The notes beneath the pieces were generated by a model. It was not told the DNA's origin, did no database searches, and saw only the letters and a program-made list of their open reading frames with translations. Source: Octopus vulgaris (lineage: Eukaryota). From it: 64,000 nucleotides of DNA. Each line of letters begins with the position of its first letter. Position 1 is the stretch's first letter. A program made the translations under genes and the position numbers. The stretch is taken from positions 10,230,001 to 10,294,000 of the forward strand of contig OX597830.1 in assembly GCA_951406725.2 (NCBI GenBank), given 5' to 3'. This document shows, in pieces, positions 43,574 to 44,263 of this stretch.

Positions 43574-43624
43574 TTTGTCAAAATATTTTCGTCGCTTTCA
43601 GACCGCGACCTGTTCACTGACAAA
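43574..43624 (-). ncRNA. Minimal hammerhead-like motif with a swapped G3:C8 core
   Basis: UUUGUCA-GUGAACA-G-GUCGC-ggucugaaa-GCGAC-GAA-A-AUAU-U-U-UGACAAA; 7-bp stem I, 5-bp stem II, palindromic AAUAUU stem III. Confidence 0.75.
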
Positions 43625-43962
43625 ACTTCGTGCTGCATCAGATGCAGCACGCAGCACGAAGCTTTGTCAGTGAACAATATTTGTCAGTGTGTTTATATGG
43701 GTGAGTACGTGTTAATTATTCCAAGCAAGTATGTATATATATATATATATATTTAATTTATAATTCGTTATATAATTTATATAATTCGTTATTATATTCA
43801 CTGCGGTGCTTATTTTAACCATATCGTACTTATGCGGTGATTTGGCGGGCGATTCAGACTGGCTGTGTCCATACGTGCATATGTATGTATGTACGACGCT
43901 CGTATATGTAAGTATATCGTTTGCTGTGCATATATATATCTGTATTTATGTACCCTTGATAT

Positions 43963-44022
43963 ATTCAATTGATGACGGTAAAGCTTATCTAAAGCAGAAC
44001 CAGAAATCCTTGGATCTTGAAT
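43963..44022 (+). ncRNA. Type-I hammerhead motif (U3 variant)
   Basis: AUUCAA-UUGAUGA-cGGU..GCUU/AAGC..ACCa-GAA-AUCC-UU-GGAU-C-UUGAAU. Confidence 0.7.
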
Positions 44023-44158
44023 TATTCAATAATTTTTGCTTGTATGTTTTGTCCCTCCGCTTTACCTCATGGTGCGATATGAACATTTAACGTGATTTTA
44101 TAGTCAGAGTTTCGACTGCTATTTCGGCATGTTGGTGTCTTTTAGACACCCTCATTTT

Positions 44159-44196
<38 letters not shown>

Positions 44197-44214
44197 GAGA
44201 TGCAGCACGAAGCT

Positions 44215-44263
44215 TTGTCAGTGAACAGGTTGCGGTCTCAAAGCGACGAAAATATTTTGACAA
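44215..44263 (+). ncRNA. Minimal hammerhead-like motif with a swapped G3:C8 core, in element 44197-44405
   Basis: UUGUCA-GUGAACA-G-GUUGC-ggucucaaa-GCGAC-GAAA-AUAU-UU-UGACAA. Confidence 0.75.

Follow-up and report, generated by a model that had tools for sequence, protein, structure and literature searches.

A hammerhead-type motif with a G3-C8 core pair in the pseudo-LTR of a Penelope-like element of Octopus

A short repeat that recurs in a 64-kb stretch of Octopus vulgaris DNA (referred to here as ‘the window’) is shown by homology to be the pseudo-LTR (pLTR) of a Penelope-like element (PLE) of Octopus, probably of the endonuclease-bearing kind. Copies of this repeat carry a hammerhead-type motif in which the tertiary core pair between positions 3 and 8 reads G-C instead of C-G. 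Judging from sequence, we consider it rather probable that this pLTR contains a G3-C8 minimal hammerhead that works like those of Penelope elements, that the swap has been kept by selection, and that the genomic copies derive from uncut RNA.

Copies of the repeat and anatomy of the motif

The full short element, copy A (∼210 bp, pseudo-LTR-like), occupies positions 44197–44407 on the plus strand, directly 3′ of a (TA)n run. Its ends lie at 44197 and 44405–44407, and the AT-rich flanks differ in other contigs. The hammerhead-type motif of this copy (44214–44264, plus strand) comprises a stem I (5′ strand 44214/5–44220, 3′ strand 44258–44263/4), a core of G3 (44221), U4, G5, A6, A7, C8 (44226) and A9 (44227), an extra G (44228), a 5-bp stem II running from G10.1 (44229) to C11.1 (44247), the sequence GAAA (44248–44251), the palindrome AAUAUU (44251–44256) and U17 (44257). 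The cut site that a first-pass annotation of the window had predicted, after U44257, agrees with hammerhead numbering of this copy.

Copy B (43515–43639, minus strand) has the same 5′ start as A, runs to ORF position +12 and is 95% identical to A. Its motif (43574–43624, minus strand) has G3-C8 in a core identical to that of A and a 7-bp stem I, and over 51 nt it differs from A in 3 places. Copy C (15698–15857, plus strand) again shares the 5′ start of A and runs to ORF position +30; its motif (15715–15765, plus strand) has A3-C8 and a decayed stem II, with 4 differences from A and 5 from B. The 5′ ends of A, B and C fall within ∼3 nt of one point. Two inverted, 5′-truncated neighbours are also found in the window, forming the pairs B/B′ and C/C′. 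C′ (15592–15685, minus strand) extends from the ORF start to the 3′ end that it shares with A, and is followed by (TAA)n. B′ (43640–43677, plus strand) lies head-to-head with B, ends just past A9 and includes G3 and C8; it is a fourth, partial segment that was absent from the first-pass annotation. No head-to-tail tandem units were found in the 64-kb window.

The first-pass annotation had placed three copies of the element at these sites, which we confirmed, and had read their cores as GUGAACA in two copies and AUGAACA in the third, as we also find: A and B correspond to a minimal type I Penelope hammerhead except for G3-C8 in place of C3-G8, and C has A3-C8. Across the four segments (A, B, B′ and C), G3 is present in three and C8 in all four. 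The literal C3 and G8 of the CUGANGA core are found in none of them; in their place A, B and B′ have G3 with C8, and C has A3 with C8, so that the Watson-Crick complement between positions 3 and 8 is kept as G-C in the first three and broken in the decayed copy. The remaining core letters (U4, G5, A6 and A9; G12, A13 and A14; the A15.1-U16.1 pair; and H17) are all present in A, B and C, as are a stem I of 6–7 bp joining the 5′ and 3′ ends and the AAUAUU palindrome of a rudimentary helix III.

For comparison only, a different repeat family in the window includes a minimal hammerhead that has the canonical C3-G8 pair as well as an extra G (52136–52180, minus strand; C3 lies at 52174, and 52136 is its 3′ end). 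The layout of the G3-C8 motif had been described as the same as that of this canonical motif; the extra G is indeed common to both, but stem I of the canonical motif has 3 contiguous pairs and its stem III palindrome is imperfect. A large inverted structure typical of a PLE insertion (52030–52695) surrounds this canonical hammerhead, and related pieces are present at 14330–14400 and 62–143.

Several other repeats were noted in the window. A SINE-like repeat, presumably an octopus tRNA-derived SINE, recurs at 43300–43420 and several other sites, and a 609-amino acid stop-free frame of RT-like sequence (23889–25718, plus strand), which we take to be a LINE-type element, has (TA)n on both flanks. 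A second, unrelated hammerhead-shaped motif with a U3-G8 core lies between B and A (43963–44022, plus strand). Its stem I has 6 bp and its outer stem II 3 bp, GAAA is preceded by an extra A, stem III is near-palindromic and the cut triplet ends in UC. It is probably a further remnant of a PLE; Figure S3 of PMC4209133 includes both U3-G8 and an extra A.

The parent element

The last 93 nt of the ∼210-bp repeat are the start of the PLE ORF, with the 3′ end of the repeat at ORF positions +92 to +94 and the motif located 56 nt upstream of the start codon. The first 31 codons (44314–44406, plus strand) encode a peptide of which 29 residues are identical to the N-terminus of the Octopus sinensis protein LOC115227545. 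The translated ORF start matched an Octopus bimaculoides protein and, via that protein, the O. sinensis and O. vulgaris models. The N-terminal part of the O. sinensis protein in turn aligned with the N-terminus of a 1045-amino acid ORF (31% over 204 residues, pairwise E value 8e-26).

Among 29 long relatives, the RT motif YxDD is present in all 29 and a YIGE-type endonuclease motif in 17. Pfam matches are weak (E values up to 0.05), with RVT_1 detected in 4 and GIY-YIG in 3 of 27 aligned relatives. The Octopus protein models end at RT motif A (P0077), and the GIY-YIG domain is known from the long relatives only. The combination of RT and GIY-YIG in one ORF is the architecture of endonuclease-bearing PLEs (PMC8557442, in part). 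A linker-like CX2-5CxxC pattern (with spacings of 2–6 allowed) occurs in 25 of the 29 long relatives, and the position of the DKG motif reads DKS in 29/29. The CX2-5CxxC linker and a DKG motif together would point to the Neptune or Nematis clade, and the DKS reading differs from the DKG rows in the supplement of PMC8557442. Within what that source describes, the (TA)n or AT-rich flanks and the inverted truncated neighbours also fit PLE insertions. Eight of the 15 contig joints listed (with 44 further joints beyond these) are between opposite strands, and one of the same 15, in a single contig, is a go-back joint; the loose ends of contigs are rich in (AT)n.

Five common family polymorphisms fall in the ORF start (44322, 44354, 44375, 44376 and 44382). 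Three of the five are synonymous and one exchanges Lys and Arg, which agrees with constraint on the coding sequence of the source elements. The gene model of the O. sinensis protein fuses the N-terminal 223 residues of the PLE to a methyltransferase domain; the join is probably an annotation fusion and possibly an exon capture.

Other assignments were considered and set aside. A 7-bp terminal inverted match (GGAGATG/CATCTCC) might suggest a MITE, but the ORF includes its 3′ arm, and copies end 4–6 nt beyond that arm. One further candidate relative (P0002) was a chance match. A PDB search returned one weak RT match and, like a protein atlas, contributed little. No family member was found in a viral sequence collection, with PLE relatives in 0 of 11 candidate stretches, and a metagenome pattern scan gave 0 matches; 114 metagenome loci recovered with a shorter pattern were attributed to chance because none aligned beyond 39 nt. 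In prokaryote genomes, 1 of 27 candidate stretches (L115) was a relative, present as a single copy in its assembly.

L115, a contig from within a bacterial MAG, is a PLE of animal type and belongs to the same DKS/KDHK group. By-eye parsing of its 3′ region (2536–2577, plus strand) gives a hammerhead-shaped motif that contains a 6-nt palindrome, A5 and a U15.1-A16.1 pair. In the canonical hammerhead core, G5 and A15.1 interact with each other (PMC3088659, in part), and the altered core of L115 may reflect relaxed constraint in this PLE group.

Competing accounts of the G3-C8 core

Penelope minimal hammerheads, which are characterized by an extra nucleotide, a G10.1-C11.1 pair and a palindromic helix III, show weak cleavage as dimers (PMC4209133, in part; PMC6765202). 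The octopus motif fits the consensus in PMC4209133, as far as the parts used here go, in its other core letters, its G10.1-C11.1 pair, the presence of an extra nucleotide and its palindrome, and its placement ahead of a start codon is as described in that source and in PMC11167929. Only two departures from the core were found; both fall on the 3-8 couple and are complementary, and the 11 other positions are intact. We argue for selection on the catalytic fold because of this pattern, and a crude model of two random changes over 13 positions gives a complementary double change at 3-8 a probability of ∼0.004–0.006. The A3 of copy C counts against a working motif.

In the mechanism that we propose, the G3-C8 tertiary pair visible in A, B and B′ would also be that of the source elements. 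A single motif would be unable to close stem III, and two copies would pair with each other by way of AAUAUU and by exchanging their stem I strands, each core then cutting its partner after U17, slowly and probably only with the element's protein. Selection acting in the source elements on the 3-8 pair, and hence on the catalytic fold, would have kept the swap. Since the copies in the genome span the cut site, they appear to have been reverse-transcribed from uncut RNA. With less certainty, the short copies might arise by internal initiation of reverse transcription ∼92–94 nt into the ORF, at the 5′ pLTR-ORF junction, and by run-off at a fixed 5′ end that is perhaps the transcription start; PLE promoters lie in pLTRs (PMC6765202). 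Against this mechanism, no contig 5′ ends at the cut site were present among the 18 loose ends listed of 804. In a dimer, a core inactivated by a single mutation could still be cut by its partner, which would provide a possible route across an inactive intermediate.

Experiments with PAc, a PLE of Anolis, bear on both this mechanism and its strongest rival. There, C3G and G8C each abolish cleavage and the double mutant partly restores it, cleavage requires the element's protein, and hammerhead mutants do not impair insertion in vitro (PMC11167929). The motif could be the descendant of a hammerhead that no longer cuts. Drift in a single source lineage would then have produced G3-C8, hitch-hiking would have spread it, and the stems would persist because the copies share a recent ancestor or because they serve as a structure that binds protein or lies close to the promoter. 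Such drift is possible because single-change intermediates are inactive in vitro and the loss of the hammerhead leaves insertion in vitro unimpaired. RNA ends of the Anolis element at the cut site were not found (PMC11167929), PLE groups that lack canonical hammerheads amplify well (PMC8557442, in part), the genomic copies span the cut site, and L115 offers another non-canonical core in the same PLE group; all of these points favour a motif that has lost its activity, as does the competition from G3-U17 pairing and alternative folds described below. Drift, however, should scatter changes over the core, whereas both changes lie on the 3-8 pair and are complementary (∼0.005) with 11 other positions intact, and the engineered double mutant keeps activity in a PLE hammerhead (PMC11167929). 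We regard loss of activity as unlikely, though by no means negligible.

The lowest-energy monomer fold pairs G3 with U17 and lies 1.3–1.4 kcal/mol below the open core. A double-hammerhead dimer fold is nested, and lies ∼2 kcal/mol above two monomers and 5–10 kcal/mol above the best cofold. Pairing probabilities within the whole of copy A are ∼0.02 for stem I and 0.29 for stem II; the corresponding values for copy B are 0.5–0.85 and 0.92. The energy models do not favour the predicted active form of the motif. A G3-C8 variant has been described as more active with G17 than with C17 (stated in PMC3884650, in the part used here, as data not shown), which suggests a trap formed by G3 and C17. The U17 of the octopus motif would weaken a G3-N17 trap of this kind.

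A second alternative, which we consider quite improbable, accepts the motif in A and B and holds that G3-C8 marks the A/B subfamily only, the family otherwise being A3-C8 (as in C) or C3-G8. We compared the repeat with three runs bearing three organism labels, in which 13,767 of 36,192,745 (X4), 7,289 of 14,162,910 (X6) and 11,151 of 28,342,437 (X9) contigs aligned to 44196–44480; the letter shares that follow are depth-weighted over contigs and are not copy counts. In these thousands of contigs stem II, GAAA, the palindrome and U17 are conserved, with no variant at or above 2% listed for 44249–44259 in any of the three runs. Position 44231 is C in 91–94%, giving a Watson-Crick stem II, and 44264 is A in 99%, giving a 7-bp stem I. 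An A-to-G change at 44260 (15–21%) keeps a U-G pair, and G12, which lies in a CpG, is changed in 2–3%, CpG decay overall being 2–9%. This conservation among young copies shows inheritance from few sources and not selection. A raw-read run (X21) contributed only 1 aligned read of 12,895,792 over the same interval, although it bears the same species label as the source in which the repeat is best represented. These four runs are the part of the 24 listed runs that the comparison covered.

All entries of the contig variant table lie at least 35 letters from either alignment end, with none before 44231, and the table omits known differences at 44210–44213 and at the CpG at 44401–44402. It is probably blind within ∼30–35 nt of the alignment ends, and hence at 44221 and 44226 (positions 3 and 8), which lie 25 and 30 nt from the alignment start. 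That property of the table leaves room for a subfamily-specific swap, as do the letters at 44210–44212, which set A, B and B′ apart from copy C and from the loose-end consensus, and the A3 of the sole window copy of the other 5′ type. Against it, C8 is present in all four segments, copy C included; stem II of that copy is otherwise decayed, and a single transition separates its A3 from G3. C-type contigs moreover align through the core up to 44214 in each run (121, 72 and 107 contigs), which is suggestive. B also carries minor family variants that A lacks (44239G and deletions at 44296 and near 44309), so that A and B come from different sources or sublineages. From these two sublineages and the C8 of copy C, we infer that G3-C8 is the family state. 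The first-pass annotation had spoken of a mobile family that fixed the double change; a mobile, high-copy PLE pLTR is what we find, and fixation is a deduction from A, B and the C8 in C.

The weakest alternative, a chance resemblance to a hammerhead in an AT-rich repeat, draws on weak folding z-scores (−0.98, −2.38 and −1.17 for A, B and C) and on the lack of an Rfam hammerhead match, but is largely refuted by context and by shuffled sequence and seems to us hardly credible, the pLTR of a PLE being the very position where a hammerhead is expected. A structure scan of the window with positions 3 and 8 left free found 2 sites, both G3-C8. In 100 local dinucleotide shuffles the mean was 0.07 sites of any kind (7 shuffles with one site each), and a site with a Watson-Crick 3-8 pair appeared in 0 of the 100; the core pattern by itself gave 2 matches in the window versus 0 in 100 shuffles. 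No Rfam hammerhead covariance match was obtained at E values up to 10 for 43500–44420, and this says little about the G3-C8 motif because the canonical motif at 52174 likewise went without one. Over the whole window, the best 150 of 552 Rfam rows comprised microsatellite-driven miRNA matches only.

Taking the preferred reading of a working G3-C8 hammerhead a step further, we tentatively suggest, as something less than an even prospect, that an Octopus PLE family of high copy number relies on a natural, active G3-C8 hammerhead and so displays selected catalysis, with dead intermediates crossed by partner cutting in the dimer. The DKS/KDHK group might then rewire its cores repeatedly, as in L115, and some ‘hammerhead-less’ PLEs might simply escape CUGANGA descriptors.

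Significance and comparison with known systems

The identification of the repeat as a PLE pLTR, by homology of its ORF start, goes beyond the first-pass annotation. The case would add a high-copy animal family in which the G3-C8 swap is clean, the core has gained no nucleotide and the parent element is identified. The motif probably represents a natural variant that works and that standard searches overlook: its core has G3 and C8, and CUGAnGA descriptors would pass it over, as the first-pass annotation had anticipated. Lunse et al. 2017, reportedly the largest survey of these motifs, and Przybilski and Hammann 2007 may already describe natural G3-C8 or its rates. In the literature that we compared, which lies outside these two, a natural G3-C8 pair was not found. 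In the parts used here of PMC8495972, PMC6155905, PMC11014351, PMC7151607, PMC10085705, PMC2920678 and bioRxiv 10.64898/2026.07.22.740005, G3-C8 occurs only as an engineered change. Among viral loci, a full hammerhead fold was found in 0/13 with G3-C8, 0/29 with G3-G8 and 1/24 with C3-C8, a narrow test that speaks neither for nor against G3-C8 in phages.

If a successful family has regained the 3-8 pair by two natural transversions, this would be evolutionary evidence for a selected catalytic geometry; PLE hammerheads have also been proposed to be possible passengers (PMC8557442, in part). The family further offers a ready mutant series, made up of the natural form, the two single changes and the revertant, and it implies that the number of hammerheads in animal genomes is underestimated when searches insist on CUGANGA.

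The closest known relatives are the minimal hammerheads of metazoan PLEs (Cervera and De la Pena 2014, PMC4209133, in part). They share with the octopus motif a type I topology, an unpaired nucleotide that separates position 9 from 10.1, G10.1-C11.1, GAAA, a palindromic rudimentary helix III and an NUH cut site, as well as location in a pLTR and dispersed and inverted copies. They differ in the 3-8 pair, which is G-C in octopus and, among the 56 representatives of Figure S3 in that source, C3-G8 in 53, U3-A8 in 2, U3-G8 in 1 and G3-C8 in none; no cephalopod is included among the 56. The extra nucleotide has the consensus H and is G in 1 of these 56, whereas the octopus motif has G. On its sequence, we have filed the motif as a variant, and not a canonical member, of the Penelope minimal hammerhead.

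Rare variants at the 3-8 pair had been said to be known elsewhere, and two routes to such variants can be contrasted. U3-A8 is reached by two transitions, with a U-G wobble intermediate possible, whereas G3-C8 requires two transversions and has no wobble route. The natural U3-A8 hammerheads published by Perreault et al. 2011 (PMC3088659, in part) share with the octopus motif a compensatory change at the same tertiary pair; U3-A8 is also natural in the Cercyon PLEs of Schistosoma, and the wobble pair U3-G8 occurs in Figure S3 (PMC4209133, in part).

The Poseidon element PAc of Anolis carolinensis (Frangieh et al. 2024, PMC11167929) likewise has a hammerhead at the pLTR-ORF junction and AT-rich targets, and its insertions end inside the ORF, at 111–118 nt as against 92–94 nt in octopus. 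G3-C8 was engineered in PAc and is natural in octopus, and the start of the ORF lies within the hammerhead in PAc but 56 nt past the cut site in octopus. Penelope and Poseidon elements are also described as without the CX2-5CxxC linker (PMC8557442, in part), whereas most long relatives of the octopus element have a pattern that resembles it. Finally, the non-LTR retrozymes (bioRxiv 10.64898/2026.07.22.740005, in part) are similar in that they are short repeats derived from PLEs, do not code for protein and carry a type I hammerhead; they form head-to-tail tandem arrays, whereas the copies in octopus lie dispersed or inverted and stop within the start of the ORF.
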